In this document: piece after piece, positions 3,925 to 30,613 of the stretch | Layout of the letters: every line of letters starts with the position of its first letter | Numbering within the stretch: position 1 is the stretch's first letter | NCBI GenBank assembly: GCA_963783575.1 | Contig: CAWAOD010000002.1 | Span: 1 to 30,641, forward strand | Direction of reading: 5' to 3' | Source of the DNA: an uncultured Spirochaetota bacterium | GTDB taxonomy: Bacteria > Spirochaetota > Brevinematia > Brevinematales > JAOACQ01 | DNA length: 30,641 nt | Notes under the pieces: generated by a model | What the model saw: only the letters and a program-made list of their open reading frames with translations | Told to the model about the DNA's origin: nothing | The model's database searches: none | Position numbers and translations under genes: made by a program

Positions 3925-4912
3925 TCAAACCTTTTCATCAGAGAGAACGGTTTCACTGCTCCTTGCCAGATATCGTTGAAGCAGAATGAAAATAAAAATA
4001 AGAATGCCTACAACTATCCTAGTCCACCAGGAACTTAAAGTACCCTGAAAGTTAATAAAATTTTGTATCAGTCCGAGGATCAACACTCCCACAAGAGTTT
4101 CCTTCGATATATCCGATACCTCCTGTTAAAAGAGTTCCCCCTATAACTACCGATGCAATAACATCCAATTCAAGGCCGCTGGCCGCCGCAGCATAGCCGG
4201 AAAGTGTATAAACAGAATATATTATTCCCGCCAGTGCGCAAAGTGTACTGTTAAGAGTATAAATCATAATCTTGGTTCTTCCGACAGGCAGCCCCATCAA
4301 TAAGGCCGATTGCTCGCTACCGCCGATAGCATACGTATTCCGGCCGAAATTAGTAAAATGAGACAAATATGCTCCCAATAATACAATAAAAATAAACACA
4401 ATAGCAACAATAGGCAAATTCACTCCCTTAAACAATGGAATTCCTGCTGTAGAAATCCGGATTAAGAGAGGATGTGTAATCGGTATGGAATCAAGGCTTA
4501 CCATATATGCGGCTCCTCTGGCGAGGAACATACCGGATAAAGTAACAAGAAAAGCCGGGAGCTTAAAAAAATGTATAAGACTTCCCATCGTCATTCCAAT
4601 TATCGCACCGATTGTAAGAGTGATTAATATTACGAGAAATGGATGGTAATGATATTTCTCTATCATTTGAGCCATATAAATACTTGTGAATGCTACCATT
4701 GATCCAACGGATAGATCGATGCCGCCTGAAATAATGACAAAAGTCATTCCGACTGCAATAATTCCTAAAAAGGCATTATCATAAAAAAGATTTATAAAAA
4801 CCCTCAGCGAGAAAAATCCGTTATACATAAATGAACCGATGCAATAAATCAGGATAAAAACACACACAGTGGCCAATAAAGGTATATTTTTTCTCCTTAT
4901 ATTTATTTTCAT
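3925..4912 (-). pseudogene. yjfF: YjfF-like sugar ABC permease (copy 2), interrupted by a single extra base near 4098-4100 (real frameshift or sequencing error)
   Basis: ORF 4052-4912 has GGIDLSVGS and the EAA-loop (YAIGGSEQSALLMGL) but ends in unrelated residues after GGIGYIEG. Removing one A from GGAAAC restores TLVGVLILGLIQNFINFQGTLSSWWTRIVVGILIFIFILLQRYLARSSETVLSDEKV* (stop 3925-3927), matching the paralog at 7209-8228. Confidence 0.85.
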
Positions 4913-4925
4913 AACTCAAACTCCA

Positions 4926-5999
4926 TTAGACAATCAAATTACCGAGAAAAACTAATATAAATTTTTTAAAGTTTAAAATTATCTTTTTAAACTCCTCAGA
5001 CTGTATAAGAGAAACAACTAAAACTACAAAAGCTTTGGGAACCAATATTTGTTCTGGAGGTATGCCTCTTGTCAATATTGTTGTTGTAAGACTTTGAATA
5101 ATAAGCGTACCGATCATAGAACCTGCAATTGTAAATTTGCCTCCCCATACTGTTCCGCCAATTATAACCGATGCAATAGCGTCAAATTCCTGATATAATC
5201 CGCAATTATTACCGTCCGCACCTTTGATGTCGGATGTAACAATCAAGCCGGCAATACCGGCACACAAGCCGCAGAAAATATAAACTATCAGCTTTATAAG
5301 CTTAGTATTTAAACCCATATATCTGCTTGCCGCAGGGTTCTCGCCTACCGCTTCAATAAGCATACCCAACTGAGTTTTTCGGGTTATTCCATAAGTCAGT
5401 AATAACAGCAAAAAAACAATAACTATGGGGAATGGTATTCCGAATAATTCACCACTACCGATATATTGAAAAGATTTATGTTGAAAAATAATAATCTGTC
5501 CTGAAGTTATGAGTTGCGCAATACCTCTGCCGGTTATCATAAGAATCAGAGTCGCAACAATCGGTTGTATCCTGATATATGAAACTAAAAATCCATTCCA
5601 TAAACCGGCAATTATTGAAACCAATAAAGGGATAATTATTACTATAAAAATTGGGACCGGTACACCATATTCAAGAATACCTGCCGTATATCCCGGCCTG
5701 ATGATTATAGCCGCAACAGCGCCGGAGATTGCCATAATAGCTCCGACGGAAAGATCGATCCCGCCGGTAGCATATACAAGCGTCATACCTATTGATAACA
5801 GCATAACAGGAGCGCCCCTGTTTAATATGTCCACAAGGCTTCCAAAAAGTCTGCCATCTTTAATTTCAAGCCTGATAAAACCCTTGGTAAAAATTATATT
5901 AAACAGAATTATAAGCAAAAATGCAATAAACGGCCAGATCAATTTTTTAAGATTTATATTTGTTGCAATTCTTTTTAATAGTTCCATGTTATTTTCCAT
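4926..5999 (-). CDS. ytfT: YtfT-like sugar ABC permease (copy 2)
   Basis: Hydrophobic BPD_transp_2-type protein: LEIKDGRLFGSLVDIL, GGIDLSVG, IQPIVATLILM, EAVGENPAASRYMG, ADGNN; paralog of 8225-9250. Confidence 0.85.
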   Translation of the reverse strand: MENNMELLKRIATNINLKKLIWPFIAFLLIILFNIIFTKGFIRLEIKDGRLFGSLVDILNRGAPVMLLSIGMTLVYATGGIDLSVGAIMAISGAVAAIIIRPGYTAGILEYGVPVPIFIVIIIPLLVSIIAGLWNGFLVSYIRIQPIVATLILMITGRGIAQLITSGQIIIFQHKSFQYIGSGELFGIPFPIVIVFLLLLLTYGITRKTQLGMLIEAVGENPAASRYMGLNTKLIKLIVYIFCGLCAGIAGLIVTSDIKGADGNNCGLYQEFDAIASVIIGGTVWGGKFTIAGSMIGTLIIQSLTTTILTRGIPPEQILVPKAFVVLVVSLIQSEEFKKIILNFKKFILVFLGNLIV

Positions 6000-6043
6000 T
6001 ATTTTATTTATGTCAAAAAAACATCGGTTCTGGTTTATTTTCC

Positions 6044-7015
6044 CTAATATTTCCTTGTAGGTAAAATTTTTTTAGCTGATTCCTGCGGAAAAACATACTC
6101 CTTAGTAACAATTCTCTTAGGTATTGTTTTACCCTCTATTAAATCTTCAATGGCATCAAAGAATTGAGGACCTAAAATGGGATTGCACTCGACAGTGCAA
6201 TTAAGCTTGCCTTCTATCATTGCTTCGAAAGCATCTCTAACAGAATCGATTGAAACAATTATTATGTCTTTTCCAGGCTTTAAGCCATATTCTTCAATAG
6301 CCTGAATAGCTCCAAGAGCCATATCGTCATTATGTGAGAACAAAATATGAATGCTTGCTCCTTCGGATTTTAAAAAAGCTTCCATTACCTCTTTTCCCTT
6401 TGTTCGGGTGAATTCACCGGTTTCTGTTTTAATAATCTTAAAATCAGGGTAACTTTTCAAAATTTCCCTGAAACCATTAAATCTATCTTTTTCAGGGGCC
6501 GAACCCACAGTCCCCTGAAGTTCAACAATATTCCTTTTATCCTTCGGCGCATTACTGACAAGCCATAAAGCAGCTCTGCGGCCTTCCTCAACAAAATCGG
6601 ACCCCATAAAAGTTACCCATAATGTTTCATCCGTTTCATCAACAGCTCTGTCGCATAAAATTACAGGTATTCCGGCAGATTTAGCTTCCCTCAAAACAGG
6701 CCCCCATCCCGATTCAACCACCGGTGAGAATCCTATCACATCAACATTCTGAGCAATAAATGATCTGATTGCTTTAATTTGATTTTCCTGCTTCTGTTGG
6801 GCATCCGAAAATTTTAATTTAATTCCTCTCTTTTTAGCTTCGGAAATTATCGATTCAGTATTGGCAGTCCTCCAGGCGCTTTCTGCGCCGATTTGAGAAA
6901 AACCAACAATAATACTTTGAATATTCTTACCTTTTAAATCTCCGGCAGATAAAATATTTGTAAAGGTAATCATATTCAAAAAAATAAATATTAACCATTT
7001 ATTTAAAAATATCAT
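6044..7015 (-). CDS. ytfQ: YtfQ-like periplasmic sugar (galactofuranose/arabinose-type) binding protein (copy 2)
   Basis: VGFSQIGAESAWRTANT, SDAQQKQENQIKAIRSFIAQ, ELQGTVGS, HNDDMALGAIQAI, VECNP, C-terminal RKY; signal peptide. Start placed at ATG 7015 (AGGAGG RBS). Confidence 0.9.
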   Translation of the reverse strand: MIFLNKWLIFIFLNMITFTNILSAGDLKGKNIQSIIVGFSQIGAESAWRTANTESIISEAKKRGIKLKFSDAQQKQENQIKAIRSFIAQNVDVIGFSPVVESGWGPVLREAKSAGIPVILCDRAVDETDETLWVTFMGSDFVEEGRRAALWLVSNAPKDKRNIVELQGTVGSAPEKDRFNGFREILKSYPDFKIIKTETGEFTRTKGKEVMEAFLKSEGASIHILFSHNDDMALGAIQAIEEYGLKPGKDIIIVSIDSVRDAFEAMIEGKLNCTVECNPILGPQFFDAIEDLIEGKTIPKRIVTKEYVFPQESAKKILPTRKY

Positions 7016-7137
7016 TATACCTCCTGATAATAAAAATAATAATATTTTAGAACACATAATGTATTATTTCAAAATATCCGGCTAATAAATGTTTCTTTAG
7101 TTCTATTAATTTAATATTTATTTATTTCAAAAATAAA

Positions 7138-7169
7138 ATGCCGGGCTGAATTATAAATCACCCCGGCAT
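7138..7169 (-). terminator. Rho-independent terminator after the first ytfQRT-yjfF operon
   Basis: Inverted repeat ATGCCGGG...CCCGGCAT, followed on the minus strand by TTTATTTTT. Confidence 0.7.
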
Positions 7170-7208
7170 ATTAATAATAAATTAATTATCGAATAAAAAT
7201 CAACTATT

Positions 7209-8228
7209 TCAGCTTTCCTTAACAACATTTACAGGATTTGCATTTTCCTTCTGCTTAAGTCCAATTCGATTGGCTTCAAAGAATCTTTGCAGAATACAGA
7301 ACAGAAATACCAATAAACCAATAATTATTCTTGTCCACCAGGAATTAATCGTGCCCTGAAACATAATCAACACCTGGATTGTTCCATATACCAATACGCC
7401 GAATATCGTTCCCAGAATACTACCCACGCCTCCTGTTAAGAGAGTGCCGCCGATTACCACCGAAGCGATTGCGTCCAGTTCCATACCTTTTCCATCCAGT
7501 GCATAACCTGACATTGTGTATAATGTGAACACAATCCCGGCTAAAGCCGAACAAAAGCCGCTTACTGCATAAATTATCATCTTCGTACGCGCCACAGGAA
7601 GGCCCATTAAAATGGCCGACTGTTCATTTCCACCCATTGCATAAATTGTCCGGCCGTATTTAGTGTAACGCGCAATGTATATTCCTATAAATACGGTAAT
7701 CAGCGCTATTGCCGCACCTATCGAGATAAAATTACCGCCTAATAAATTGATGTGAAATTGCGCCAAGGCATTATAAAATGGATTGTTAATCGCTATAGTA
7801 TCAATACTTACAACATAACACAAACCTCTTCCCAGGTACAAACCGGCTAATGTAATAATAAAAGGCGGAAGATCAAAAGCCTGAATTAAATACCCCATCA
7901 TTAAACCAAGCAATGTTCCTATTATCAGAACCACCGGCAGAACAATTATAATGCTTAAATGCGACTTTTCCATGAGGCTTGATGTTACCATTGTTGCCAA
8001 GGCAAGCATGGAACCTACAGACAGGTCAATGCCGCCTGATATAATGACAAATGTCATTCCCACGCCCAGTATTAACAGATAGGCATTATCAATGAACAGG
8101 TTGAAAAAATTCTGAACTGAAAAGAAGTTTGTAAAAGCAACCGAACCTGATCCAAACATAACAATAAACAGCCCAATAGTTACAAAAGTTGGTAGATTTC
8201 TGGCATTTATCAAAGATTTCTTATTCAT
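7209..8228 (-). CDS. yjfF: YjfF-like sugar ABC permease (copy 1)
   Basis: GGIDLSVGS, YAMGGNEQSAILMGLPV, ELDAIASVVIGGTLLTGG, FQGTINSWWTRI; overlaps the upstream stop (ATGA coupling). Confidence 0.9.
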   Translation of the reverse strand: MNKKSLINARNLPTFVTIGLFIVMFGSGSVAFTNFFSVQNFFNLFIDNAYLLILGVGMTFVIISGGIDLSVGSMLALATMVTSSLMEKSHLSIIIVLPVVLIIGTLLGLMMGYLIQAFDLPPFIITLAGLYLGRGLCYVVSIDTIAINNPFYNALAQFHINLLGGNFISIGAAIALITVFIGIYIARYTKYGRTIYAMGGNEQSAILMGLPVARTKMIIYAVSGFCSALAGIVFTLYTMSGYALDGKGMELDAIASVVIGGTLLTGGVGSILGTIFGVLVYGTIQVLIMFQGTINSWWTRIIIGLLVFLFCILQRFFEANRIGLKQKENANPVNVVKES

Positions 8229-9250
8229 GCTGACAGCTCCTTTCTACTAAATATTCCAGTTACCTTCGAACGGAATTTTTCAGACTGCAGTAAACAGATT
8301 GCATAAACAACTATAGCCTTTACTACCTGCGAAATTTCCGGCGCCACATTAAATGCATAGATAGTTGTTGTAAGTGTCTGAATGATCAAGGCGCCTACCA
8401 TACTGCCCAGAAGGTAAAACTTTCCTCCGTTAAGTGATGTTCCGCCAAGCACAACAGCCAATATGGCATCCAGTTCAAATAAGTTACCGGCATTATTTCC
8501 GTCAGCGCTTCCTACAACCGAACAGACGATCAATCCTGATACACCCGCGCAAAACCCGCTGAATGTATAGCACCAGAAAATAATATTCTTGGCATTTATT
8601 CCTGAAAATCTTGTTGCCGTTGGATTTATTCCCACAGATTCAATAAATAAACCCATAGCTGTTCTTCTTGTCAATATTATAGTTAAAATTAATACAACCG
8701 CTACAATGTATATATCAAACGGCAGACCCAGCAGGTAACCCTGGCCAAGATAAAAGAACGGTTTGTGATAGAGCCAGATGATCTGCGCATTCGTAAAAAC
8801 CATGGCTATACCGCGGCCGGCGACAAAAAGTATCAGCGTTGCTATAATAGGCTGCATACCAACTCGTGAGACCAGCATCCCATTCCACATTCCGGCTAAT
8901 ATTGAAATCACCAAAGCGGCGAGCATACAGATAAAAAGAGGATGAAGTGAAACCCCCTTCAAATCTCCCCCGATTAAAACCGCTACGGCGCCGGCTGAAA
9001 TCGCTACCACCGAACCGACAGATATGTCAATTCCATGCGTCGCAATCACAAGTGTCAGCCCTATTGCCAGAAGCATAATCGGGGCGGCATTCTTTATAAT
9101 ATCAATAAGATTGCCGTAAAGATGCCCTTCTTTTATTTCCATGGCGAAAAAATTTTTGGTAAAAAACAGGTTAAATAGTAAAAGTATTCCAAGAGCAACC
9201 AAAGACCATATAATTCTGGAACTTGTAAAACGCTTCCAAATATTGACCAT
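8225..9250 (-). CDS. ytfT: YtfT-like sugar ABC permease (copy 1)
   Basis: GIDISVGS, MQPIIATLILFVAGRG, ESVGINPTATRFSG, ADGNNAG, ELDAILAVVLGGT. Confidence 0.9.
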   Translation of the reverse strand: MVNIWKRFTSSRIIWSLVALGILLLFNLFFTKNFFAMEIKEGHLYGNLIDIIKNAAPIMLLAIGLTLVIATHGIDISVGSVVAISAGAVAVLIGGDLKGVSLHPLFICMLAALVISILAGMWNGMLVSRVGMQPIIATLILFVAGRGIAMVFTNAQIIWLYHKPFFYLGQGYLLGLPFDIYIVAVVLILTIILTRRTAMGLFIESVGINPTATRFSGINAKNIIFWCYTFSGFCAGVSGLIVCSVVGSADGNNAGNLFELDAILAVVLGGTSLNGGKFYLLGSMVGALIIQTLTTTIYAFNVAPEISQVVKAIVVYAICLLQSEKFRSKVTGIFSRKELSA

Positions 9251-9252
9251 AC

Positions 9253-10779
9253 CTATTTACCTCCCGCAATAGCATGCAAGATGCCGTTCTCATTCATTTC
9301 ATTATCACGCAGTTCCCCGATTTTTGCTTTGTCCTTTAAAACAGCAATCCTGTTGCTGCAGCGTACAACCTCCTCAAATTCAGAGGAGATAAATAATACT
9401 CCCATCCCTTCCCTGCTCAGATTAAGTATCAATTCCATAATCTCAAGTTTAGCTCCGACATCTATACCGCGTGTAGGCTCATCCAGGATAAGAGTTTTCG
9501 GCTTTGTAGCAAGCCATCTTGCCAGCATAACTTTCTGCTGATTACCTCCGCTTAATCTTTTAACTGCCTGGTCTTCACTTGGAGTCCTTATCCCTAAAGT
9601 TTTAATAAAATTGTCAGCAATTGCCATCTGTTTTCTTTTTGGTATATATTTAAACATTCCATTTTTACCCTGTAAAGCGAGAATTATATTTTCCCTCACT
9701 GAAAGATCAGGAATGATTCCCTCGCTCTTTCTGTCTTCGGGACAATACCCCATGCCCGCAGAAACTGCATCTTCCGGCGAATTGATATTTGTTTTGGTAT
9801 CATTAATTTTAACTTCGCCATAATCCGCTCTTTCTATCCCAAAGATAAGCCTTGCCATTTCCGTCCTTCCGGAGCCAAGAAGCCCAGCAAGGCCGAGAAT
9901 TTCACCTTCATTGATGTTCAGATCAAAAGGCGAGAGATAACCCTGCTTTCCCATGCCTCTTATTTTAACTATTGGATTTGCCACTTTTGCAGCTGCTCCG
10001 GCTTCTTTTCTCCTTTCATCGTCTCTTCTGGAATAGCTGAATTCCGATAATTCCTTACCCAGCATCTTAGCAATAAGATCAATCTTCGGCAGTGAAGCTG
10101 TTTTATACTCCCCAACCAACACACCATTTTTCAAAACCGTGATACGGTCCGATATCTGGTAAGTCTGGTCCAAAAAATGGGTTATGAATATTATTGCCAT
10201 ACCTTCATCACGCAATTTACGGATTACTTTAAATAACTGATCAACTTCCTTTTCATCAAGACTTGAGGTCGGTTCGTCCAGAATTAAAATCTTGGCAGAC
10301 ATATCCAGTACACGCGCAATAGCTGCCATCTGCTGAATTGCGATGGAACAGGATGATAATACCTGGGTTACATCTATCACTATATTTAACCGTTTTAATA
10401 TTTCTTCCGATTTCCGGTACATCGTCTTCCAGTCAATTCTTCCATATTTCATCGGCTCTTTACCGATAAAAATATTCTCGGCGACTGATAAGTTCGGACA
10501 AAGATTTACTTCCTGATACACTGTGCTGATTCCCAGTTTTTGAGCTTCCAGCGGTGAATCCGGTTTTATAGGTTTCCCTTCTAAAAAAATATCTCCGGAA
10601 TCCTGTTTATGAACTCCTGTCAAAACCTTTATCAAGGTTGACTTCCCGGCTCCGTTCTGGCCCATTATAGCATGAACCTCTCCTTTATAAAGATGGAAAT
10701 CCACATCAGATAAAGCTTTCACTCCAGGAAAATATTTATTAATTTTTTTCATCTCCAATACTGTTATATTCTCAGCCAT
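9253..10779 (-). CDS. ytfR: CUT2-family sugar ABC ATPase with two NBDs (YtfR-like)
   Basis: Walker A GQNGAGKST, Q-loop VYQE, Walker B ILDEPT, H-loop ITHF; second NBD with LSGGNQQ and LDEPTRGIDVGAK. Confidence 0.93.
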   Translation of the reverse strand: MAENITVLEMKKINKYFPGVKALSDVDFHLYKGEVHAIMGQNGAGKSTLIKVLTGVHKQDSGDIFLEGKPIKPDSPLEAQKLGISTVYQEVNLCPNLSVAENIFIGKEPMKYGRIDWKTMYRKSEEILKRLNIVIDVTQVLSSCSIAIQQMAAIARVLDMSAKILILDEPTSSLDEKEVDQLFKVIRKLRDEGMAIIFITHFLDQTYQISDRITVLKNGVLVGEYKTASLPKIDLIAKMLGKELSEFSYSRRDDERRKEAGAAAKVANPIVKIRGMGKQGYLSPFDLNINEGEILGLAGLLGSGRTEMARLIFGIERADYGEVKINDTKTNINSPEDAVSAGMGYCPEDRKSEGIIPDLSVRENIILALQGKNGMFKYIPKRKQMAIADNFIKTLGIRTPSEDQAVKRLSGGNQQKVMLARWLATKPKTLILDEPTRGIDVGAKLEIMELILNLSREGMGVLFISSEFEEVVRCSNRIAVLKDKAKIGELRDNEMNENGILHAIAGGK

Positions 10780-10829
10780 TACATGACCTCCCCAAATTAA
10801 ACCACTAAACTTAATTCCCGGTTTTAAAA

Positions 10830-10853
10830 GACCACCCCTAGTCAGGGGTGGTC
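10830..10853 (-). terminator. Intercistronic stem-loop after the binding-protein gene (partial terminator or mRNA stabiliser)
   Basis: Perfect 10-bp stem GACCACCCCT-AGTC-AGGGGTGGTC, followed by TTTT on the minus strand; a typical position in ABC operons. Confidence 0.7.
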
Positions 10854-10889
10854 ATAATTTATTCAGTTTAAGCTATAACGTTATTAAGA

Positions 10890-11867
10890 TCAATACTGAC
10901 GTGTCGGTAATGCTGCAGCGGCAGTTGTCTCGTCAAAAATACCTTCGATTGTATTGATTTTTGCAGGAAGCTTTTTGCCGGCCATCAGATCTTTAACAGC
11001 CTGTAAAGCCTGGGGTCCAAGAAGAGGATTACATTCTACAGAGCAATTCATTTCACCAGCAACCATAGCTTCGAATGCACCCTTAACACCATCCAAACCA
11101 ATGATAATGATATCTTTTCCGGGTTTGAGACCGGCTTCTTTGATAGCCTGTATGGCGCCGAGAGCCATTCCATCGTTATGAGCATATAAAACCTGGATGG
11201 TTTTGTCGGCTTTCAGAAAAGCTTCCATAACGGCTTTACCTTCAGCAACTGTAAAGTTACCGGTCTGAGAACGGGTAATCTTCCAATTGGGATGGTTAGC
11301 AGCCATAACGGTCCTGAAGCCTGCAGCTCTCTCGATAGCAGGAGCAGAGCCGGTGGTTCCCTGAAGTTCGACTATGTTAATCGGCTTCGTGCCGTCATCG
11401 ATACCTTTCTTCTTTAAATAGTCACCCAGCCATGTAGCGGCTTTTTCGCCTTCTTTCGTAAAATCGGAACCCATAATGGTCAATCTTAAATCCCTGTCTT
11501 CTTTTGCAACATCTCTATCAATCATTATAACAGGAATCTTGGCTTTTTTAGCTTCTTCAAGAACCGGGCGATAACCGGTTTCAACAATAGCAGTAAAAAC
11601 AATTACATCAACTTTTCTGGTAATAAAAGATCTTAAAGCCTTAATCTGGTTTTCCTGCTTCTGCTGTGCATCGGAGTAGATAAGAATCATATTGGGATCG
11701 TCATTGAAAGTATTCTGAACAGAAACGGTATCGGCATCTCTCCATTCGCTTTCAGAACCAACCTGTGCGAAACCGACTACAATTTTTCCGCCGACTTTAG
11801 CGAAACTAACCGAGAATACAACCATTGCTGCGGTCAACAACAACAAACCTTTTAGCCACTTGTTCAT
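10890..11867 (-). CDS. ytfQ: YtfQ-like periplasmic sugar binding protein (copy 1)
   Basis: Signal peptide ending VSFA; VGFAQVGSESEWR, SDAQQKQENQIKALRSFI, HNDGMALGAIQAI, VECNPLLGP. Start placed at ATG 11867 (AGGAGG RBS). Confidence 0.9.
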   Translation of the reverse strand: MNKWLKGLLLLTAAMVVFSVSFAKVGGKIVVGFAQVGSESEWRDADTVSVQNTFNDDPNMILIYSDAQQKQENQIKALRSFITRKVDVIVFTAIVETGYRPVLEEAKKAKIPVIMIDRDVAKEDRDLRLTIMGSDFTKEGEKAATWLGDYLKKKGIDDGTKPINIVELQGTTGSAPAIERAAGFRTVMAANHPNWKITRSQTGNFTVAEGKAVMEAFLKADKTIQVLYAHNDGMALGAIQAIKEAGLKPGKDIIIIGLDGVKGAFEAMVAGEMNCSVECNPLLGPQALQAVKDLMAGKKLPAKINTIEGIFDETTAAAALPTRQY

Positions 11868-12102
11868 AAACAATCCTCCTAAAATTTTTATGTCTTTCGA
11901 CACTTCTTTCTTTTCTTTATTAATTTACTACTAATAAAGAAAAGACTCATAAAACAACACCTTCCGACACCCATCATTTAAAAACGATGAATATCCCGCC
12001 ATCCGCTTACATATAATCCTCCTTTATATTTTGCTCCCATCATTACCAAAAGAGGTAATCTGAAAACAAAATTATTTTTAAATTAAAAGAATTATAATCA
12101 GC

Positions 12103-12753
12103 TTATTTTGAAACATTCAAAAATTTGTAAATATTCTGACCTGTAAATAATTTTTCAATATCAAACTTGAGCGGTCCTATTACATTGCTGACAGCTCCAT
12201 TGGGATATGCAAGCAGTAATGTGTTATTTATTGCAATGATTGTGACTTTTCCTTTAATATCCAACCGGTCTCCATATTTAATATCCTTCTCGTTTCCATT
12301 TGCATCTGCATATATTTGCCTTCCAAGGTATTGTTTGACCACAAGTTTGTTTTTAAATGACGGATCGGTTTTGTCGCTTACTTTCGGAAAACTGACGAAT
12401 CTCGGTTTTTCCTTTGAAATTTCCCCTGCTTTTTTAATCACATCTCCCTTATCGCTTCCATCAATCTCATATACAGCAGTAGGATTATTCGCAGGTGTTA
12501 ACTCTACCCAATCCCTATCAACATTGACCCTGATTTCCGCATTGGCAGGTATTGAATCGCCGACTTTAATAACCACCCAATCTCCGGTTCCAACCCTATA
12601 GCTTACATGACCATCTTCAGTTTCAGAATAGAGACCCACAACTGCTAGAGGGCCGCTTTTAGCGGAAGTCTGCTTTTGAGCGGAATATAATCCGGTTATT
12701 GAAATTAATAGAAGAAATGAAAAAACTGAAATACCTGTTTTTAATAATCTCAT
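12103..12753 (-). CDS. Secreted hypothetical beta-rich protein with an apparent internal duplication
   Basis: 216 aa ORF with GAGGAG RBS and Sec signal peptide (…GLYSA); first gene downstream of the sigma-54 promoter. Confidence 0.75.
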   Translation of the reverse strand: MRLLKTGISVFSFLLLISITGLYSAQKQTSAKSGPLAVVGLYSETEDGHVSYRVGTGDWVVIKVGDSIPANAEIRVNVDRDWVELTPANNPTAVYEIDGSDKGDVIKKAGEISKEKPRFVSFPKVSDKTDPSFKNKLVVKQYLGRQIYADANGNEKDIKYGDRLDIKGKVTIIAINNTLLLAYPNGAVSNVIGPLKFDIEKLFTGQNIYKFLNVSK

Positions 12754-12845: not shown

Positions 12846-12861
12846 TGCAATTTACTTGCCA
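12846..12861 (-). promoter_or_regulatory. Sigma-54 (-24/-12) promoter for the hypothetical-ytfQRT-yjfF operon
   Basis: Minus strand TGGCAAG-TAAA-TTGCA matches consensus TGGCACG-N4-TTGCW with exact spacing; a bEBP gene is divergently adjacent. Confidence 0.85.
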
Positions 12862-13074: not shown

Positions 13075-13127
13075 ATTGTATAAATAATACACATTTTCTA
13101 TGTATAATTATGTATATTATTTACACA
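13075..13127. promoter_or_regulatory. Tandem candidate enhancer (UAS) sites TGTA-N7-TACACA
   Basis: ATTGTA-TAAATAA-TACACA (13075-13093) and TATGTA-TATTATT-TACACA (13109-13127), 34 bp apart; the same motif occurs with perfect palindromic arms at 13338-13356. Confidence 0.6.
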
Positions 13128-13222: not shown

Positions 13223-13238
13223 TGGCACACTTCTTGAT
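13223..13238 (+). promoter_or_regulatory. Possible second, divergent sigma-54 promoter (variant -12)
   Basis: TGGCACA-CTTC-TTGAT: good -24 element and correct spacing, but GA instead of GC at -12. Confidence 0.4.
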
Positions 13239-13318: not shown

Positions 13319-13356
13319 TTGACAACAATTACCAAACTGTGTAGAATTATTACACA
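13319..13356 (+). promoter_or_regulatory. Sigma-70 promoter of the two-component operon overlapped by a palindromic operator
   Basis: TTGACA (13319-13324)-N17-TAGAAT (13342-13347); palindrome TGTGTA-N7-TACACA at 13338-13356. Confidence 0.7.
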
Positions 13357-14720
13357 TGAGTATATTATTTATTGAGAATATAATGAATAATTCTATTTTG
13401 ATTATCGATGATAATGTCAAATTAAGTCAAAGCCTGAGCCAGAATTTCGAACCTCTCGGATATAAATGTTTTACAAGTACAAATTGTTCCGAAGCGCTTG
13501 ATATCCTATCAAAACATCAGATAAAAATCGTTTTACTGGATATTGTCCTTGGAGAAGAAGATGGGATGGCGGTGCTTAGTAAAATTGTTTCATTAAACTT
13601 ATCAATACATGTTATAATGATCACCGGTTTTGGAACTATTGAAACAGCAGTCCAATCAATAAAATGCGGGGCTTTTGATTATGTCCAAAAACCTCTTGAT
13701 TTCAATAAACTGCTGAAAATTATAGAGAACGCATTCAGAATATCCAATCTTCAGGAAGAAAATCAAAGTTTAAAAAAACAAATTTTTGAGCTTTCTCCGA
13801 AAATGATCACACAGAATAAAAAGATGATAGAAGTTTGTAATACCGCAAAAAGATTGGCAAATACAAATATACCGATATTAATTTGCGGTGAGAATGGAAC
13901 AGGAAAAGAATTGCTGGCTGATTTTATACACAAAAATTCCACACGAAGCGCTTTTCCAATGATCAAGATAAACTGTGCCGCATTTCCGGAAAATTTACTG
14001 GATAACGAGCTTTTCGGTCATGAAAAGGGTGCATTTACAGGAGCAAATTCTTATTTTAAAGGAGTCTTTGAAAAGGCGAATAAAAGCACCTTATTACTGG
14101 ATGAAATAGGTGATATGTCTCTGGCTACACAGGCAAAAATTTTAAGAACACTGCAGAATCAGGAAATTAAAAGAATCGGCGGAAATGAAACAATAAAAGT
14201 TGATGTTCGTTTTATTGCCGCGACAAATAAAGACTTAAAAAAGCTCATTGACGAAAAATTATTCAGAGAGGACCTTTTTTATCGGCTAAACGCCGCTTCC
14301 ATTAATATTCCGTCGTTAAGGGAACATATGGATGATATTTCTCTTTTAATCGATAATTTTTTAAAGGAATTTTCAAACAATAATAAAAAAAATGTAGAAA
14401 AGGTCAGTAATGAAGTAATGGAATTGTTTCTTGAATATCAATGGCCAGGAAATATCAGGGAACTTAAAAATGTTATTAATTATTCGGCGGCTCTTTCAAC
14501 AAACAATCAAATCGATATTGAAGACCTGCCAGTGTCTTTTAAAGTCAGTGAAATCTCTGAAGAAAATGAAGATATACTCGAAAATAATGAAAAAAGACTT
14601 ATAATAAAGATACTTCAAAAAACAAATTTCAATAAAAAGAAAGCCGCTGAAATATTAAATATAAGCAGAAAAACACTTTATAATAAACTGGAGAAATATG
14701 AAATTAACATCTCAGAATAG
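13356..14720 (+). CDS. Sigma-54-dependent response regulator (NtrC/AtoC family: REC-AAA+-Fis HTH)
   Basis: REC domain (IIDD, LLDI, ITGFG, KP), Walker A GENGTGKE, GAFTGA motif, LLLDEIG, FREDLFYRL, WPGNIREL, HTH KAAEILNISRKTLYNKL. The true start may be ATG 13383. Confidence 0.95.
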   Translation: MSILFIENIMNNSILIIDDNVKLSQSLSQNFEPLGYKCFTSTNCSEALDILSKHQIKIVLLDIVLGEEDGMAVLSKIVSLNLSIHVIMITGFGTIETAVQSIKCGAFDYVQKPLDFNKLLKIIENAFRISNLQEENQSLKKQIFELSPKMITQNKKMIEVCNTAKRLANTNIPILICGENGTGKELLADFIHKNSTRSAFPMIKINCAAFPENLLDNELFGHEKGAFTGANSYFKGVFEKANKSTLLLDEIGDMSLATQAKILRTLQNQEIKRIGGNETIKVDVRFIAATNKDLKKLIDEKLFREDLFYRLNAASINIPSLREHMDDISLLIDNFLKEFSNNNKKNVEKVSNEVMELFLEYQWPGNIRELKNVINYSAALSTNNQIDIEDLPVSFKVSEISEENEDILENNEKRLIIKILQKTNFNKKKAAEILNISRKTLYNKLEKYEINISE

Positions 14721-16548
14721 AATGGACCAGGATAATCCGTTATTAAAACTTACAAATATTTGTCTGAAACAGGAAAATACATCGGTCCTTAAAGAAATTA
14801 ATATTGAAATTAAGCGCTCCGAAGTGCATGCTTTGGTTGGAGAACATGGATCAGGGAAATCATCTCTTGGTTATATCATCAGCGGAATGCAGAGGCCGAA
14901 TTCAGGCGATATATTTTATAAGAACAAACATTATAATTATTTGAATATTAATAATGCCAGAAAATTAAATATTGTAATGGTTTTACAGCAGATATACCTG
15001 CTGGATTATTTTACCGTGGCAGAAAATATCCTTATCCCTGATAAAATCACACATTCCTTTCCATTTTTAAGAAAAAAACACATCTTTCAGGAAGCTAAAA
15101 CTCTTCTGGAAGCCAACGGTTTCATGATTGATCCTCATATGCTTGTAAAAGACCTCCAGTTGTCTGATAAAATGGTAATTCACATTTTGAGAAGTATTTA
15201 TAGAAAACCTGATCTTTTGATACTGGATTCCGTGCTGGAAAAGTTAGCCTCATATGATATGGAGCTTATCAAGGGTCTCTTAATAAAATTAAAAAATCAG
15301 GGTACAGCGATGCTATACATCACAAACCGTATTGACGACGTTTATGATATCGCAGACAAAGTCACAATTATTAGAAACGGCGAAATATTACTTACCGATG
15401 CCGTTAGAAATATAGACAGGATCAACCTCATAAAGCTCTGCTATGCTCAAATTACCAAAAGCCAAAGTGCGGAAAATATAAACCAGGAATTTTACCAGCT
15501 TTTAAAATATAACGAGGCAATATTGCAGAAACTTCCGGTAAATCTTATAGTCACAGATAATGAAAACAGAATTAAAATGATAAATGAATTTGGGATTGTC
15601 TACTTTCATCTGGGGAAATCACCATATATTAATGTTCTTCTGGACGATCTTTTCGGTAAAAAAAACAGGGAAGCCCTGAAACTAATTAAGAGCGCATTGT
15701 CCGACAAGCAGGAAAAGGCTTATTTCAGTGTTCCCATGACAGTAAAAGATTCCAAGAATATTACAAATATCAAAACCTTCCCAATCTATGATGGTACATT
15801 CTTAATCGGAAACATTATAATAATAGAAGACATATCAAAACAGGAAAATCTCAGGCAGCAGGTGATCCTTTCCGAAAAATTAGCTTCAGTCGGGCTGCTT
15901 GCCGCGGGGGTGGCTCACGAAATAAATAACCCGCTTGAAATAATCTATAATTATTTAAATTATTTAAAATTCAACCTGAATAAGGAATCCATTCAAAAAA
16001 CCGTCAAAAATCTTGAAGAAGAAATAGCTTATATAAAACAAATTGTTGGTAATCTTATCTCGTTTTCTGACAGTAATAAAATCACGAATGAGGATTTTAA
16101 TGTCCATGATTTAATCCAGAGCCTGTTGAATCTTATAAAATATAACGCGAAGCATAAGCATATCTCTATGAAATACCTGCCTTCGGATTCGCCGATCTCG
16201 ATAAAAGCAAATAAAAACGAGATTAAACAGGTAATACTGAATTTAATAAAAAACAGCTTTGAAGCTATGCCGGACGGAGGCATTATAAATATAGAAACAC
16301 AAATTACCGAATCCGGCAGTTTGAAATTTGCCAATATCATCATTCGTGATACCGGACCCGGGATTAAAGAAGAAAACCTTCACAACATATTCCTCCCGTT
16401 CTACTCAACTAAAAAAGGTGGCAGCGGCCAGAACCTTGGACTTGGCCTTTCTGTCAGTTACGGTATCATAAAAAAGTACAACGGCGAGATCAGCATAATG
16501 AACCTGAAAGGAGCAGGCTGTGAATTCAGGATAATCCTGCCGCTGTAA
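14698..16548 (+). CDS. Soluble hybrid sensor: degenerate sugar-ABC ATPase domain + PAS-like domain + histidine kinase
   Basis: aa ~15-245 resemble the first NBD of CUT2 ATPases (EVHALVGEHGSGKSSL, TVAENIL, ADKVTIIRNGE); PAS-like ILQKLPVNLIVTD...KMIN; H-box LAAGVAHEINNPL; N-box NLIKNSFEAM, G1 DTGPGI, F IFLPFYSTK, G2 GLGL; no TM segment. Alternative start ATG 14722. Confidence 0.9.
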   Translation: MKLTSQNRMDQDNPLLKLTNICLKQENTSVLKEINIEIKRSEVHALVGEHGSGKSSLGYIISGMQRPNSGDIFYKNKHYNYLNINNARKLNIVMVLQQIYLLDYFTVAENILIPDKITHSFPFLRKKHIFQEAKTLLEANGFMIDPHMLVKDLQLSDKMVIHILRSIYRKPDLLILDSVLEKLASYDMELIKGLLIKLKNQGTAMLYITNRIDDVYDIADKVTIIRNGEILLTDAVRNIDRINLIKLCYAQITKSQSAENINQEFYQLLKYNEAILQKLPVNLIVTDNENRIKMINEFGIVYFHLGKSPYINVLLDDLFGKKNREALKLIKSALSDKQEKAYFSVPMTVKDSKNITNIKTFPIYDGTFLIGNIIIIEDISKQENLRQQVILSEKLASVGLLAAGVAHEINNPLEIIYNYLNYLKFNLNKESIQKTVKNLEEEIAYIKQIVGNLISFSDSNKITNEDFNVHDLIQSLLNLIKYNAKHKHISMKYLPSDSPISIKANKNEIKQVILNLIKNSFEAMPDGGIINIETQITESGSLKFANIIIRDTGPGIKEENLHNIFLPFYSTKKGGSGQNLGLGLSVSYGIIKKYNGEISIMNLKGAGCEFRIILPL

Positions 16549-16689: not shown

Positions 16690-18012
16690 ATGAATAGGAT
16701 TTTTAAAATTCTAACGGTGATTTTTGTTGTGTCAAATGCACTTTTTATTTTCAGTACTTGCTCGCAGACACCGGCAAACAATTCTTCTAGCAGTACGGCA
16801 AGCAGTTCGTCAATCGGTACGAAGTATGGATATTATAAGGTCGGAGTAGGTAACCTGAAAAGCTTGCATTTGTCTAAAGCGGGCTCTAAAGATAATTTCA
16901 CAAGTATATCCAAGGCAGTCATTACAATTGTCGATTCTCAGGGCCAGTTAGTTACCGATTCGGATGTTGTTGAGCTTTTTGATTTTGGCGGTACTTATCT
17001 GAGCGCGTCAATTCAGATTCCTGCCGGTACATACAAATTGACCCGGTACCTGATCGCAGATTCGTATAACAGGATTCTCTATGCAACCCCGATTACAAAT
17101 TCCCTCCTGGCGGCAAATGTGGCAAACCCGCTTCCGATTGAGTTTACGGTTTCGGAAAGTGCTACAACAAATGTTATTGCAGATATCATCCAGGTTTACA
17201 ATCATACTGGCACTGATTTTGGTTACGCGGGATTTACATTGCCTACAAATGCATTAACAAATCAACTGCCTTTCCCTTCGCAAACGACAATCTATTCTTA
17301 TTCAATTGGATCCAATGGAAATTACCTTTATGGATATCAATACCAGGGGTATTTTTCATATTACGGCAATAATGGTAATAAGAATTATAATACAGTTGAT
17401 GGTCAGATGAATAACGGCGATGATGTTGTGACTGGCTGGTGGAAAGACCAGTCGAACGCGAATTTCGGTTCATGGCAAAGTGGGGCTGGAGCAGACGGGC
17501 AATGGTTTACCTCCGATGATGTCATTCAGCATTGGGAAGATTGGACAGTATCGAGCTATCACACGATTTATACAGCCGCCGGCCCGGATGGAATATGGTT
17601 TACATCGGATGATATACAAACCGAATGTTATAAAGATAGTTTTGATGCTGAAGGAAATACTGTCAGAAGAGTACACTATACGAATGCGGGTGCGAATGGA
17701 ATATGGAATGACAGCGATGATGTTATAGGCCCTGATTGGTTTGGCTGCTGGTATACAAATTTCTATGACGGCACAAACAACAGGTGGTGGAGCTGGACAA
17801 AACAGATCAGGTATGATGGACCCGGGCCTGGTGGAGTATGGTTAACAGCGAATGACCATGTCAAAGAGTGGGTAGTTCATGAGTTTTCAGATACCCGGTT
17901 CTCTAAATTTTGGACAAAAGAAACATATTATACTGATGCCGGACCGGATGGAATTATGTTTACAGCAGATGATGTACCATATCAGTATAACATTGCTACA
18001 AATATACAATAA
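16690..18012 (+). CDS. Putative lipoprotein with repeated G-x-D-G-x-W-x-T-x-D-D motifs
   Basis: AGGAG RBS; signal peptide ending FSTC (Cys24), then a Ser-rich linker; beta-rich N-terminal domain; six imperfect repeats in the C-terminal half. Confidence 0.75.
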   Translation: MNRIFKILTVIFVVSNALFIFSTCSQTPANNSSSSTASSSSIGTKYGYYKVGVGNLKSLHLSKAGSKDNFTSISKAVITIVDSQGQLVTDSDVVELFDFGGTYLSASIQIPAGTYKLTRYLIADSYNRILYATPITNSLLAANVANPLPIEFTVSESATTNVIADIIQVYNHTGTDFGYAGFTLPTNALTNQLPFPSQTTIYSYSIGSNGNYLYGYQYQGYFSYYGNNGNKNYNTVDGQMNNGDDVVTGWWKDQSNANFGSWQSGAGADGQWFTSDDVIQHWEDWTVSSYHTIYTAAGPDGIWFTSDDIQTECYKDSFDAEGNTVRRVHYTNAGANGIWNDSDDVIGPDWFGCWYTNFYDGTNNRWWSWTKQIRYDGPGPGGVWLTANDHVKEWVVHEFSDTRFSKFWTKETYYTDAGPDGIMFTADDVPYQYNIATNIQ

Positions 18013-20062: not shown

Positions 20063-21547
20063 TTAACTCAAAAAAGGATTTTCCGTTTTATAAAAAACCC
20101 CTGCGGGATGATTAAAGGAAACATCTTCAATGCCCAACATTTTTATAGCCGCAAAAATTGCTTTCCCGGCATGCTTGAATGCAATACCGGCATGATGCGG
20201 ATATCTTTTTTCAATAAGCACATGCCTGTAAAATCTGCCCATTTCTTCTATTGCAAAAACTGCAATTCCGCCAAAAGATTTCGGATTTATGTCCAGAATT
20301 TCACCCTGGGCGATGTATGCGCGAAGTACAGTATCCGCAGTCGACTGTAGCCTGAAAAGAGTTATATCACCTGGTTTTATCCGGCCTTCAAGAGTACCCC
20401 TTGTAATTTCCGGATCCTTTCCAGGCTCCATAAGACGATGCATAATAAGCTGATATTTCATATGGGAATTTGCCATACATGAAGATGCCGTATTTCCGCA
20501 GTGAAATCCCATAAAAAGGTCTGTCGGTTTGTATTTTTTTATTTTGCCTCCGGCTTCATCTATCATATCATAAGGCACAGTATTGTTTATATCGAGCAGA
20601 GTGGCAGGCAAATCTGTAGCGCAAACAGCTATGTATTCACTCAAAGCTCCGTATATGTCAACTTCACAGGAAACAGGTATTCCTCTTGATGCCATTCTTG
20701 AATTGATATAGCAGGGAACAAACCCAAAATATTTTTCAAAAGAAGGCCAGCATTTATTAGCGAAAATTCCGAATTCCGATGCCCCGAGATTCTTATCCAT
20801 AAAATTCGTCAGGGCGGCTTCGTATTGAGCCAGATTTTCAAGAAGCGCAGGATAAGTGTTACCTTTGCCCAGTTCTTTAGCCATACTTCCCGCAATCTCT
20901 TTTATCTTTGGATCCCCTTTTGCTGTTTGAAATATATCATATAAATCCAGTTCGCTATTTTCCATGATTTCAACGCCGATATCGTATAAAGGCTTTATCG
21001 GGGCATTACATGCCAGAAAATCCTGCGGACGAGGACCGAAAGAAAATATTTTCAGTTTTTTTAATCCGAGCATTATTTTTGTGACAGGTATAAAATCAGA
21101 AATCATACCGGCGACTTCATCGGCAACTCCTACAGGATATTCAGGAATATAAGGCTTTAGATGCCTTAATCCAATATTATAAGAAGCATTCAGCATCCCG
21201 CAATAGGCGTCGCCCCTGCCCCCGATCAAGTCTTTGCCTGTTTCTTCGGCGGCTGCAGTAAACATCACGGGACCGTCGAATTTTTGTGCAATTAAAGTTT
21301 CAGGACCTTCGGGGCCAAAGTTTCCAAGATAAACAACCAGGGCATTAATCTTTTTTTGCCTGATTTCATCAAGGGCTTTCAGTACATCGGCTTCATTTTC
21401 TATGGTGGTTTTCAGTTCGGTAATGCTTATGCCTTTTTTGACACATTCTTCCACAACCTTTGCTCTTCTTTTTTGTGATAATTCAATTGGAAAACAATCC
21501 CTGCTTACAGCTACAATCCCTAAACTAACTTTTGCGGTATTATCCAT
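20063..21547 (-). CDS. L-fucose/L-arabinose isomerase family protein (probable alternative L-arabinose isomerase)
   Basis: SRDCFP, GNFGPE, RGDAYCG, KCWP, CEVDIYG, FHCG and PHH motifs of the fucose-isomerase-like family; in an operon with araB and araD. Start placed at ATG 21547 (AGGAG RBS). Confidence 0.8.
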   Translation of the reverse strand: MDNTAKVSLGIVAVSRDCFPIELSQKRRAKVVEECVKKGISITELKTTIENEADVLKALDEIRQKKINALVVYLGNFGPEGPETLIAQKFDGPVMFTAAAEETGKDLIGGRGDAYCGMLNASYNIGLRHLKPYIPEYPVGVADEVAGMISDFIPVTKIMLGLKKLKIFSFGPRPQDFLACNAPIKPLYDIGVEIMENSELDLYDIFQTAKGDPKIKEIAGSMAKELGKGNTYPALLENLAQYEAALTNFMDKNLGASEFGIFANKCWPSFEKYFGFVPCYINSRMASRGIPVSCEVDIYGALSEYIAVCATDLPATLLDINNTVPYDMIDEAGGKIKKYKPTDLFMGFHCGNTASSCMANSHMKYQLIMHRLMEPGKDPEITRGTLEGRIKPGDITLFRLQSTADTVLRAYIAQGEILDINPKSFGGIAVFAIEEMGRFYRHVLIEKRYPHHAGIAFKHAGKAIFAAIKMLGIEDVSFNHPAGVFYKTENPFLS

Positions 21548-21579
21548 ATTCACTCTCCTAATAAATTTCATATTATAAC

Positions 21580-22275
21580 CTATTTCTGACCATAATAAGC
21601 ATTTTTACCATGTTTTCTTTTATAATGTTTATCTATTAATGATTTTTTCAGCCTTACAGAATTCGGATTAATCTGCAGTGTAAACAAAGCCATTTTTGCC
21701 AGTTCTTCAAGAACAACGCTGTTATAAACCGCTTTTTCAGGAGTTTTACCCCAGGTAAAAGGGCCATGACAGGCTACAAGCACCATTTCTACCTCTGTAT
21801 AGGAATAATTTTTGAACAATTCTATAATCTGATTTCCGGTTTCAACCTCATAATCTCCCTGAATCATTTTATCGCTCATAATTTTTGTACAGGGAATATC
21901 GACAGGCATATGATCCGCATGAGTGGTTCCAAAAATCGGAATCGGTTTTACGGCCTGTGCCCACGCTACGCTGTAAGTTGAATGGGTATGTACAATACCT
22001 CCAATCTCCGGAAAGTTTTTGTAAAGTATTGTATGCGTTTTTGTATCCGAAGAGTAGCGCAGTTTTCCCTCAATAACCCTGTTTTCAAAGTCTACAACAA
22101 CCATATCTTCCGGTTTTAATTCATCATATGGAACACCGCTGGGTTTTATGGCAAAAACCCCTTTTTCGCGATCAATAGCGCTTACATTTCCAAAAGTATA
22201 AACCACAAGTTTTTTCTTTGGAAGTTCCATATTACACAGCCAGGCTTTTTCCTTCAATTCATCAAATGAGCTCAC
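21580..22275 (-). CDS. araD: L-ribulose-5-phosphate 4-epimerase
   Basis: TFGNVS, IKPSGV, SSDTKTH, VHTHS, GTTHAD, HGPFTWG, RKHGKNAYYGQ. GTG 22275 preferred as start from its spacing to AGGAG. Confidence 0.95.
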   Translation of the reverse strand: MSSFDELKEKAWLCNMELPKKKLVVYTFGNVSAIDREKGVFAIKPSGVPYDELKPEDMVVVDFENRVIEGKLRYSSDTKTHTILYKNFPEIGGIVHTHSTYSVAWAQAVKPIPIFGTTHADHMPVDIPCTKIMSDKMIQGDYEVETGNQIIELFKNYSYTEVEMVLVACHGPFTWGKTPEKAVYNSVVLEELAKMALFTLQINPNSVRLKKSLIDKHYKRKHGKNAYYGQK

Positions 22276-22284
22276 AAACAACTC

Positions 22285-23964: not shown

Positions 23965-23999
23965 AATTTTTTCTCCAGCTTTTTAATTTTAAATCCACC

Positions 24000-30429: not shown

Positions 30430-30613
30430 AGTATTCAACCTATTCAATTAGATTAAATCATTCCTGTATTTTTGTCAATTCAGAGAATGCCATATGATTA
30501 CATAAAAGGTATGATTTAATATTCATCATTCAATATTTTAAAATGAGATCCCAATTTAATAATCACTCAATTTGGGTATACCTAAACTGAGCGATTCTTA
30601 TTCAATAATAACT

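Follow-up and report, generated by a model that had tools for sequence, protein, structure and literature searches.

A soluble histidine kinase carrying a CUT2-type ABC nucleotide-binding domain probably reads a sugar transporter

What is the nucleotide-binding domain (NBD) of an ATP-binding cassette (ABC) sugar importer doing at the N-terminus of a histidine kinase? The question is raised by a gene at 14698..16548 in 30,641 nucleotides of DNA from an uncultured Spirochaetota bacterium (assembly GCA_963783575.1, contig CAWAOD010000002.1; the whole stretch analysed is called the window below). The gene follows that of a sigma-54-dependent response regulator, the pair is divergent from a CUT2-type sugar transporter operon, and the kinase is soluble. 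We propose that it probably reads the CUT2 transporter itself, to switch sugar uptake on. The regulator-kinase pair and the domains of the kinase are located as follows:

13356..14720 (+): sigma-54-dependent response regulator with REC, AAA+ sigma-54 interaction and HTH_8 domains (Pfam; also its recurrent pairing with the kinase)
14698..16548 (+): soluble NBD-PAS-HisKA-HATPase_c histidine kinase of 616 aa, in an open reading frame (ORF) without interruption
14725..15444 (+): CUT2 NBD1-like domain, kinase residues 10-249 (Pfam, NCBIfam, alignment, AlphaFold2 model, tree and Foldseek)
15505..15831 (+): PAS-like domain, residues 270-378 (profile match, AlphaFold2, Foldseek and Pfam PAS domains in homologues)
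15835..16542 (+): kinase core, made of the DHp helices (residues 380-458, with H407) and the catalytic ATP-binding domain (465-615)

Architecture of the kinase

The first-pass annotation of the window, made by eye, had likened the N-terminus of this protein to the first NBD (NBD1) of the sugar ATPases, and library searches bear this out. The Pfam domain ABC_tran (PF00005) covers residues 31-178 (E 7.5e-18; 65.9 bits against a cut-off of 25), and positions 1-244 of the 492 in the NCBIfam model YtfR match residues 15-259 (E 7.2e-41). The same stretch also matches the NBD1 of AraG, XylG, AlsA, LsrA, GguA, MglA and RbsA; these CUT2 models align over the full length of NBD1, with E values from 1e-33 to 7e-41. 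A place on the NBD1 side of the NBD tree (see below) agrees with the assignment. The protein is not itself a CUT2 ATPase, as it scores 140.1 bits against the YtfR equivalog cut-off of 850 and contains one NBD, not the two in tandem (~500 aa) typical of those enzymes. Toward the C-terminus, HisKA (residues 399-458; 34 bits, cut-off 26.9) and HATPase_c (residues 506-616; 70.1 bits, cut-off 26.4) are both above threshold and, with H407 as the predicted phospho-acceptor, mark the protein as a HisKA-type histidine kinase. The AtoS model spans residues 255-615 (E 9.1e-65; 219 bits, cut-off 646), and no NCBIfam model reaches its own cut-off for the kinase.

Four domains had been expected in this single ORF. 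Pfam returned ABC_tran, HisKA and HATPase_c but no PAS match in the kinase itself (at E<=1), and the PAS domain comes instead from other lines of evidence. Residues 264-614 of the family profile match the PAS-DHp-CA kinase ThkA (3a0r_A, E 1.9e-49; CA is the catalytic ATP-binding domain), and many homologues carry Pfam PAS domains (PF08448, PAS_4; PF13426, PAS_9; or PF00989). The AlphaFold2 model (mean pLDDT, the per-residue confidence, of 77.5) is laid out as an NBD (residues 10-249), a disordered low-confidence linker (250-268), an alpha/beta PAS-like domain (270-378; block pLDDT mostly 77-88), the DHp helices (380-458) and the catalytic domain (465-615), and the blocks over NBD residues 11-110 reach 85-93. 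Foldseek searches with this model had both PAS/LOV kinases and ABC NBDs among their matches, the latter including MalK, LptB and MJ1267 at target TM-scores of 0.5-0.87 (MalK with a root-mean-square deviation of 2.8 over 226 columns; LptB with target TM-scores of 0.82-0.87). On the model and the profile match, a PAS fold is predicted between the NBD and the DHp helices.

The kinase has no membrane segment, as had been noted at first pass. Its highest 19-residue Kyte-Doolittle mean is 1.39, located in a DHp helix, compared with 1.43 in the soluble ATPase1 of the window and 2.49 and 2.88 in its permeases.

Several motifs of the NBD have changed. The Walker A sequence GEHGSGKS (residues 48-55; 14839-14862) and the Q-loop MVLQQ (residues 94-98, with Q97) are intact. 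In the Walker B motif LILDS (residues 174-178; D177-S178 at 15226-15231) the catalytic Glu is replaced by S178, and in the H-loop ITNR the His is replaced by N210, whose codon starts at 15325. The two real ATPases of the window have LILDE/VFDE and ITHF/VSHR at these positions, so that translation and alignment agree with the motifs and replacements first read from the DNA. The signature motif is degenerate too (LQLSDKM, aligned to LSIGQRQ of ATPase2). Hence Walker A and the Q-loop are those of a competent ATPase, and the signature, the catalytic Glu and the H-loop His are not. With these last three altered, this kinase should bind ATP but scarcely hydrolyse it, judging from its motifs.

Extent, conservation and origin of the family

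All of the 120 best database homologues (47-69% identity, at least 95% coverage) carry PF00005, HisKA and HATPase_c, an architecture so common that a chimera produced by the assembly is ruled out. Their sources include Spirochaetes, KSB3 (Moduliflexus, Vecturithrix) and Desulfovibrionaceae, among others. A search of 1.84 billion cluster representatives, with only the linker and PAS piece (147 aa) as the query, gave 149 matches at E<=0.001, 98 of them at E<=1e-10. Among these, 93 are at least 580 aa long; matches to the NBD and to the kinase core are both present in 86 of them, and the remaining seven are longer multi-PAS proteins. The 86 full-length representatives stand for clusters at 50% identity, and the fusion extends over Spirochaetota, KSB3, Desulfobacterota, Planctomycetota and others, well beyond the single assembly in which it was noticed. 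In the databases its members are labelled only 'ATP-binding cassette domain-containing protein' or 'histidine kinase'. The first-pass annotation knew of no characterised example, and our full-text literature searches, whose coverage leaves out subscription journals, likewise found no description of an NBD-kinase fusion, and a look-up of terms in PMC12316311 gave none either. This is a large, conserved and apparently unstudied family, with at least one cultured carrier, Pseudodesulfovibrio indicus (WP_066806149.1).

The distribution of the family is patchy, since the kinase gene was found in none of 40 related genomes (at E<=1e-60) and yet is present in three copies in this one. Among the loci fetched (see below), the nearest homologue belongs to a metagenome-assembled genome (MAG) of Spirochaetales (L084). 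With PriA as the query, the matches were of only 37-44% and were scattered among many phyla.

Conservation was followed in 121 close sequences and in the 86 diverse representatives. The Walker A Gly48 and Lys54 and the Walker B Asp177 are kept in all the close sequences and in 83, 82 and 83 of the representatives, respectively; Gln97 of the Q-loop is kept in 120 of the close sequences and 61 of the representatives. The phospho-acceptor His407 is invariant (86/86). Position 178 is E in 92 of the close sequences (A in 24, T in 3, S in 2) and in 77 of the representatives, and position 210 is H in 108 (N in 6, R in 4, Y in 2, S in 1) and in 70, respectively. The description of the NBD as a degenerate ATPase therefore holds for this protein and a minority lineage but not for the family. 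The signature motif is different: it is never canonical (consensus LxLSD[RQK], with Ser154 in 17/86, Gly156 in 3/86 and Gln157 in 6/86), and its alteration is a family-wide trait in the alignments, unlike the loss of Glu and His.

The variants without the Glu (the window, L085, L086, L091, L096 and L103) belong to the clade associated with YtfT/YjfF-type two-permease transporters. We considered whether the loss was tied to transporters that lack an ATPase, and rejected this, because L085, L086, L091, L096 and L103 all have one. The kinase of L146, with Ala at position 178, has no permease in its locus, and that of L125, a locus without an ATPase gene, keeps both Glu and His.

In a FastTree phylogeny of 122 NBDs (with SH-like supports), the 36 kinase NBDs form a single group (support 99) on the NBD1 side of the split between NBD1 and NBD2 (support 100). 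Therefore, the NBD was captured once, from a CUT2 NBD1, and repeated capture of the NBD of the neighbouring ATPase is ruled out by the same single group. At shallow depth the tree of the kinase NBDs follows that of the neighbouring ATPases. The fusion junction falls at the position of the inter-NBD linker of the CUT2 ATPases. The kinase would have arisen when a single CUT2 NBD1, severed at this linker, was fused to an NtrB/AtoS/ThkA-type PAS-DHp-CA core.

Genomic setting and the sigma-54 regulon

The start of the kinase gene overlaps the stop of the regulator gene by 23 nt, and the regulator is NtrC/AtoC-like. The transporter genes and regulatory elements of the window are the following:

13319..13347 (+): sigma-70-like promoter TTGACA-17-TAGAAT adjoining the start codon of the regulator (11/12, pattern match only)
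13077..13127 (no strand): palindromes TGTGTAAATAATATACA (13111-13127) and TGTGTATTATTTATACA (13077-13093), candidate activator sites
12846..12861 (-): predicted sigma-54 -24/-12 promoter TGGCAAGTAAATTGCA, 93 nt 5' of the first gene of the transporter operon
12103..12753 (-): opening gene of the sigma-54 unit, coding for 216 aa with an N-terminal signal-like segment, secreted-looking
7209..11903 (-): YtfQRT-YjfF-type CUT2 transporter, complete (library matches)
10890-11903 (-): binding protein SBP1
9253-10779 (-): ATPase1, with two NBDs
8225-9250 (-): permease permA, YtfT-like
7209-8228 (-): permease permB, YjfF-like
7122..7176 (-): terminator-like hairpin with the U-run UUUUAUUUUU, 3' of permB (-21.5 kcal/mol, z -4.66)
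3934..7057 (-): second YtfQ/YtfT/YjfF-like set, without an ATPase gene
6044-7057 (-): binding protein SBP2
4926-5999 (-): permease permC
4052-4912, remainder to ~3934 (-): permease permD, YjfF-like, with a frameshift near 4087-4104

For comparison, 70 loci were fetched from one-genome-per-species contigs with the family-specific linker/PAS alignment. An earlier scan with a full-length alignment had retrieved mostly ordinary kinases, only L001 and L002 being full length among its 80 loci. Adding these two gave a linkage sample of 72 loci with 69 full-length family genes, whose ORFs were labelled by phmmer against the window's own proteins. The kinase gene lies directly 3' of a sigma-54 response regulator gene, on the same strand, in 64 of the 69 cases. 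A permease, a binding protein and a two-NBD ATPase of ~500 aa all occur within 7 kb in 44 of the 48 loci that extend at least 6 kb to each side. The four exceptions are L092 (binding protein slightly past 7 kb), L150 (binding protein not detected), L146 (a binding-protein/LacI-like gene alone) and L125 (permease and binding protein next to the kinase, ATPase gene absent from the locus). The commonest layout has the CUT2 operon divergent from the regulator-kinase pair, and all three kinase copies of this genome share it. The linkage to CUT2 operons and to a sigma-54 activator, which at first pass had been visible in one genome, thus recurs widely, and the promoters described next extend it.

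In the window, the sigma-54 unit runs from the 216-aa protein through SBP1, ATPase1 and permA to permB, and the two palindromes lie ~215-265 bp upstream of its -24/-12 element. Sites of the form GG-N10-GC with at most two mismatches to TGGCAC-N5-TTGCW were sought in the 53 loci that have a divergent transporter gene upstream within 2.5 kb (intergenic total 23.4 kb). A site aimed at the transporter operon was found in 40 of the 53 intergenic regions, where ~2 would be expected from the background rate over whole loci (0.087 per kb per strand), and only one site in these regions pointed the opposite way. In 22 of 66 loci, the palindrome motif TGTRTA-N5-TAYACA (at most one mismatch) lies within 700 bp 5' of the regulator gene. 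Its density there is 0.47 per kb, compared with 0.0105 per kb elsewhere in the loci; this ~45-fold enrichment is partly circular, because the window and four loci served to define the motif. The genome also codes for rpoN (353.7 bits, cut-off 277). By its regulator domains, the presence of rpoN and the predicted -24/-12 promoter, this is a sigma-54-dependent two-component system in annotation terms, and it very probably switches on the divergent CUT2 sugar-uptake operon from that promoter.

A further sequence 5' of the regulator gene, TGGCACACTTCTTGAT at 13223-13238 (+), has a good -24 half, with GA replacing the GC of the -12 half; the sigma-70-like sequence at 13319-13347 is the better match. 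In L125 (an Oceanispirochaeta MAG), the regulator (8757-9416, +; 219 aa) consists of REC and HTH_8 only, with no sigma-54 AAA+ domain, and the divergent operon (6166-8735, -) codes for a GNAT acetyltransferase besides its permease and binding protein, the ATPase being absent. The other two regulator, NBD-kinase and CUT2 modules of our genome are L154 (G000:C3:24000-43900) and L155 (G000:C14:90000-109900). In L154 a TGA interrupts the kinase, and the ATPase is in two parts of 304 and 189 aa; in L155 the two ATPase parts are 441 and 80 aa long, and the first ~60-95 residues are missing from the kinase ORF.

The terminator-like hairpin separates the second set, SBP2-permC-permD, from the sigma-54 operon, and this set has its own sigma-70-like promoter match. 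The products of permC and permD are closest to the permeases found beside family kinases in L086, L091, L096, L103, L116 and L120, each of which has an ATPase. The final ~57 residues of permD are in a different frame, running to ~3934. Indel errors are as likely a cause of this as real decay, because other genes of the 18-contig assembly are also split (one paralogue kinase and two ATPases). The permeases are of the BPD_transp_2 / YtfT-YjfF type.

Another regulator of the window is built on an NBD. The protein encoded at 29362-30447 (-) matches the NBD1 of AraG/RbsA/XylG over residues ~6-252 (E 1e-23 to 1e-27), followed by an AraC helix-turn-helix (HTH) domain. Its Walker A (ISDNQKAL), Walker B and H-loop are all lost, and its conservation profile revealed no particular surface that is clearly retained. 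It adjoins another CUT2 operon (binding protein 28116-29108, ATPase 26490-27995, permease 25492-26466). The NBD-AraC family is small, with 13 other full-length homologues (37-62% identity). In the NBD phylogeny its members also fall on the NBD1 side, where they cluster by themselves (support 100), apart from the kinase NBDs.

Among the remaining genes, the 216-aa protein that opens the sigma-54 unit has no family match, and among the related loci a homologue in an equal position was found only in L085. Located 3' of the kinase, 16690-18012 (+) codes for a 440-aa protein with a lipoprotein-like signal (…FSTC), which has no family match and no homologue in the related loci; its C-terminal half contains five repeats of G-x-(D/N)-G-x-(W/M)-(F/N)-(T/D)-(S/A)-D-D (e.g., GPDGIWFTSDD). 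Between the transporter regions, a pentose-utilisation cluster (20063-25049, -) contains an isomerase with Fucose_iso_C, a class II aldolase/epimerase, an FGGY kinase and a LacI-type regulator.

Possible mechanisms and comparison with known systems

How might a soluble kinase respond to a transporter? In the mechanism that we favour, the NBD docks on the cognate permease and relays its state to the kinase, a proposal drawn from domains and gene neighbourhoods for which we see the chances as evenly balanced. The kinase would dimerize through its DHp helices and so present two NBD1-like domains, both of which would bind ATP (Walker A, the Walker B Asp and the Q-loop being conserved). Docking would be on the permease of the cognate CUT2 transporter, at its coupling helices, with the real ATPase displaced in some of the complexes. 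When a sugar-loaded binding protein docked on the permease, the two kinase NBDs would be pulled together, and their closure would pass through the linker and the PAS domain to the DHp helices, flipping the balance between kinase and phosphatase. Sugar specificity would then come from the transporter and not from the kinase.

Several observations point this way. The kinase has no membrane part of its own; the tree of the kinase NBDs follows that of the neighbouring ATPases at shallow depth; transporter sets without an ATPase gene exist in L125 and in the window (SBP2-permC-permD); and the NBD-AraC protein, a second regulator of the window built on a CUT2 NBD1, also lies beside a CUT2 operon. 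Paralogous systems within one genome are informative as well. Domain by domain, their kinases share 50-80% identity, and the regulators share 55-64%, compared with 24-37% for the binding proteins, 26-47% for the permeases and 37-44% for the ATPases (ranges that omit any pair involving L101's divergent second copy or the three more divergent paralogues of genome OY776510). Since the kinases are more alike than their binding proteins, specificity is more plausibly supplied by the transporter. A complex prediction with permA, permB and kinase residues 1-250 (custom alignments) scored 0.01, which speaks neither for nor against binding.

A number of points weigh against docking. The transporter has its own two-NBD ATPase at 44 of the 48 loci, so a docking kinase would either compete with that enzyme or occupy only a fraction of the complexes. 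A kinase homodimer offers NBD1 and NBD1, when the native partner of the permease is NBD1 and NBD2, and a heterodimeric YtfT/YjfF permease would need both its coupling helices to accept NBD1. Gln97, in the Q-loop, is kept in only 61 of the 86 representatives. Most members retain the Glu and the His, and therefore binding ATP with no hydrolysis is no general rule. The examples without an ATPase amount to one of 48 loci plus the window, where permD is frameshifted, and an ATPase encoded elsewhere could serve such sets. The PAS domain could be the true sensor; NBD and PAS diverge about equally between paralogues (mean pairwise identity 0.39 and 0.38), and therefore divergence does not single out the NBD.

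This last point leads to the alternative that survives best, although we think it rather unlikely. The PAS domain would sense a cytoplasmic sugar or metabolite after uptake, and the NBD would be a transporter-independent switch, dimerizing with ATP as in non-transport ABC proteins and tuning the kinase to the ATP supply. A well-folded PAS domain does lie between the NBD and the DHp helices, the Walker A and B motifs are conserved, as are the catalytic residues in most members, which befits a working ATP switch, and each locus already has its own ATPase. However, an energy sensor would have no evident reason for a near-obligatory linkage to CUT2 transporters across phyla, nor for descent from a CUT2 NBD1 in particular. 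Moreover, the PAS domains of most paralogues are 47-58% identical when the binding proteins are 24-37% identical, a poor fit to a specificity set by the PAS domain.

An unlikely elaboration of docking is that the system of the window is split into a receptor and a pump, with the CUT2 NBD1 serving as a generally portable module that plugs regulators into ABC permeases. SBP2-permC-permD and a hydrolysis-dead kinase dimer (S178, N210 and the degenerate signature) would together make a non-transporting ABC 'receptor', in which sugar bound outside would close the kinase NBDs and lead to phosphorylation of the sigma-54 activator. The activator would then induce the real transporter, SBP1-ATPase1-permA-permB, and the CUT2 NBD1 would have been recruited at least twice, once for the kinase and once for the AraC regulator.

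We give little credence to a third possibility, that the partner of the NBD is the ATPase of the transporter, or some other soluble protein, and that the NBD reports a busy motor, much as idle MalK holds MalT. A complete ATPase is indeed nearby (44/48 loci), ABC NBDs are made to pair with other NBDs, and the family-specific signature LxLSD[RQK] could suit a non-canonical partner. However, CUT2 ATPases hold both NBDs in one chain and leave no free half-site, and neither L125 nor the second set of the window has an adjacent ATPase. MalK acts on MalT through its extra C-terminal domain, of which the kinase NBD, aligned to NBD1 over its full length, has no equivalent. Equally improbable is an NBD that is a relic or a mere scaffold for dimerization or stability, senses nothing and leaves the kinase constitutive or regulated elsewhere, for although three catalytic elements are degenerate in this kinase and a paralogue in the same genome is broken by a stop codon, the Walker A Lys (82/86), the Walker B Asp (83/86) and the fold are kept across phyla, and a relic would not remain as conserved as the PAS domain beside it.

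If the kinase does contain a built-in ABC motor that docks on permeases, it would be a compact route from a loaded binding protein and an engaged permease to gene expression, and the NBD-permease interface would be reusable as a signalling plug. Such a device would explain how soluble kinases sense extracellular sugars in Spirochaetota, KSB3, Desulfobacterota and Planctomycetota. Should the NBD never touch a permease, histidine kinases would nonetheless have a new ATP-dependent input domain, defined by this family. With a family this large and a cultured carrier, the idea is directly testable.

Each half of the protein has known relatives. With the CUT2 ATPases (YtfR, AraG, RbsA, XylG, MglA) it shares the homology to NBD1, the Walker A motif, the Q-loop and the Walker B Asp, but it has no NBD2, its signature is degenerate, its scores are far under the cut-offs and, in this protein, the Glu and the His are lost. 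With kinases of the NtrB/AtoS/ZraS type and ThkA (PDB 3a0r) it shares the PAS-DHp-CA core and the NtrC/AtoC-like partner, but none of them has an ABC NBD as its N-terminal input. In PstSCAB-PhoU-PhoR and MalK-MalT, the ATPase subunit of an importer reports its activity to a regulator, an exchange between separate proteins, whereas here the NBD is built into the sensor itself. To our knowledge, where transporters act as co-sensors (Bce, Pst-PhoR, DctA-DcuS, MalK-MalT), they always do so by contacts between separate proteins.

The kinases CbrA and CrbS are reported to be fused to an SLC5 solute-transporter domain (PMC7096432 and PMC5715377), and thus also join part of a transport machine to a histidine kinase in one chain. 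Whereas those kinases incorporate a secondary transporter's membrane permease, the present one incorporates the soluble energy-coupling domain of a primary ABC importer. By analogy, the closest working counterpart is the Bce module of Firmicutes (BceRS-BceAB), which PMC4513084 and PMC10314905 describe as sensing flux via an ABC transporter. In these descriptions, as in our proposal, the kinase takes its signal from an ABC transporter and not from a ligand, and controls the production of that transporter. BceS is a membrane kinase that touches the permease BceB by its transmembrane helices, with kinase and transporter as separate proteins. Neither its two transmembrane helices nor a BceB-type permease with a large extracellular domain is found here. 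Instead, the system of the window has a soluble kinase with an NBD in its own chain, a binding-protein-dependent CUT2 importer and a predicted sigma-54 output.

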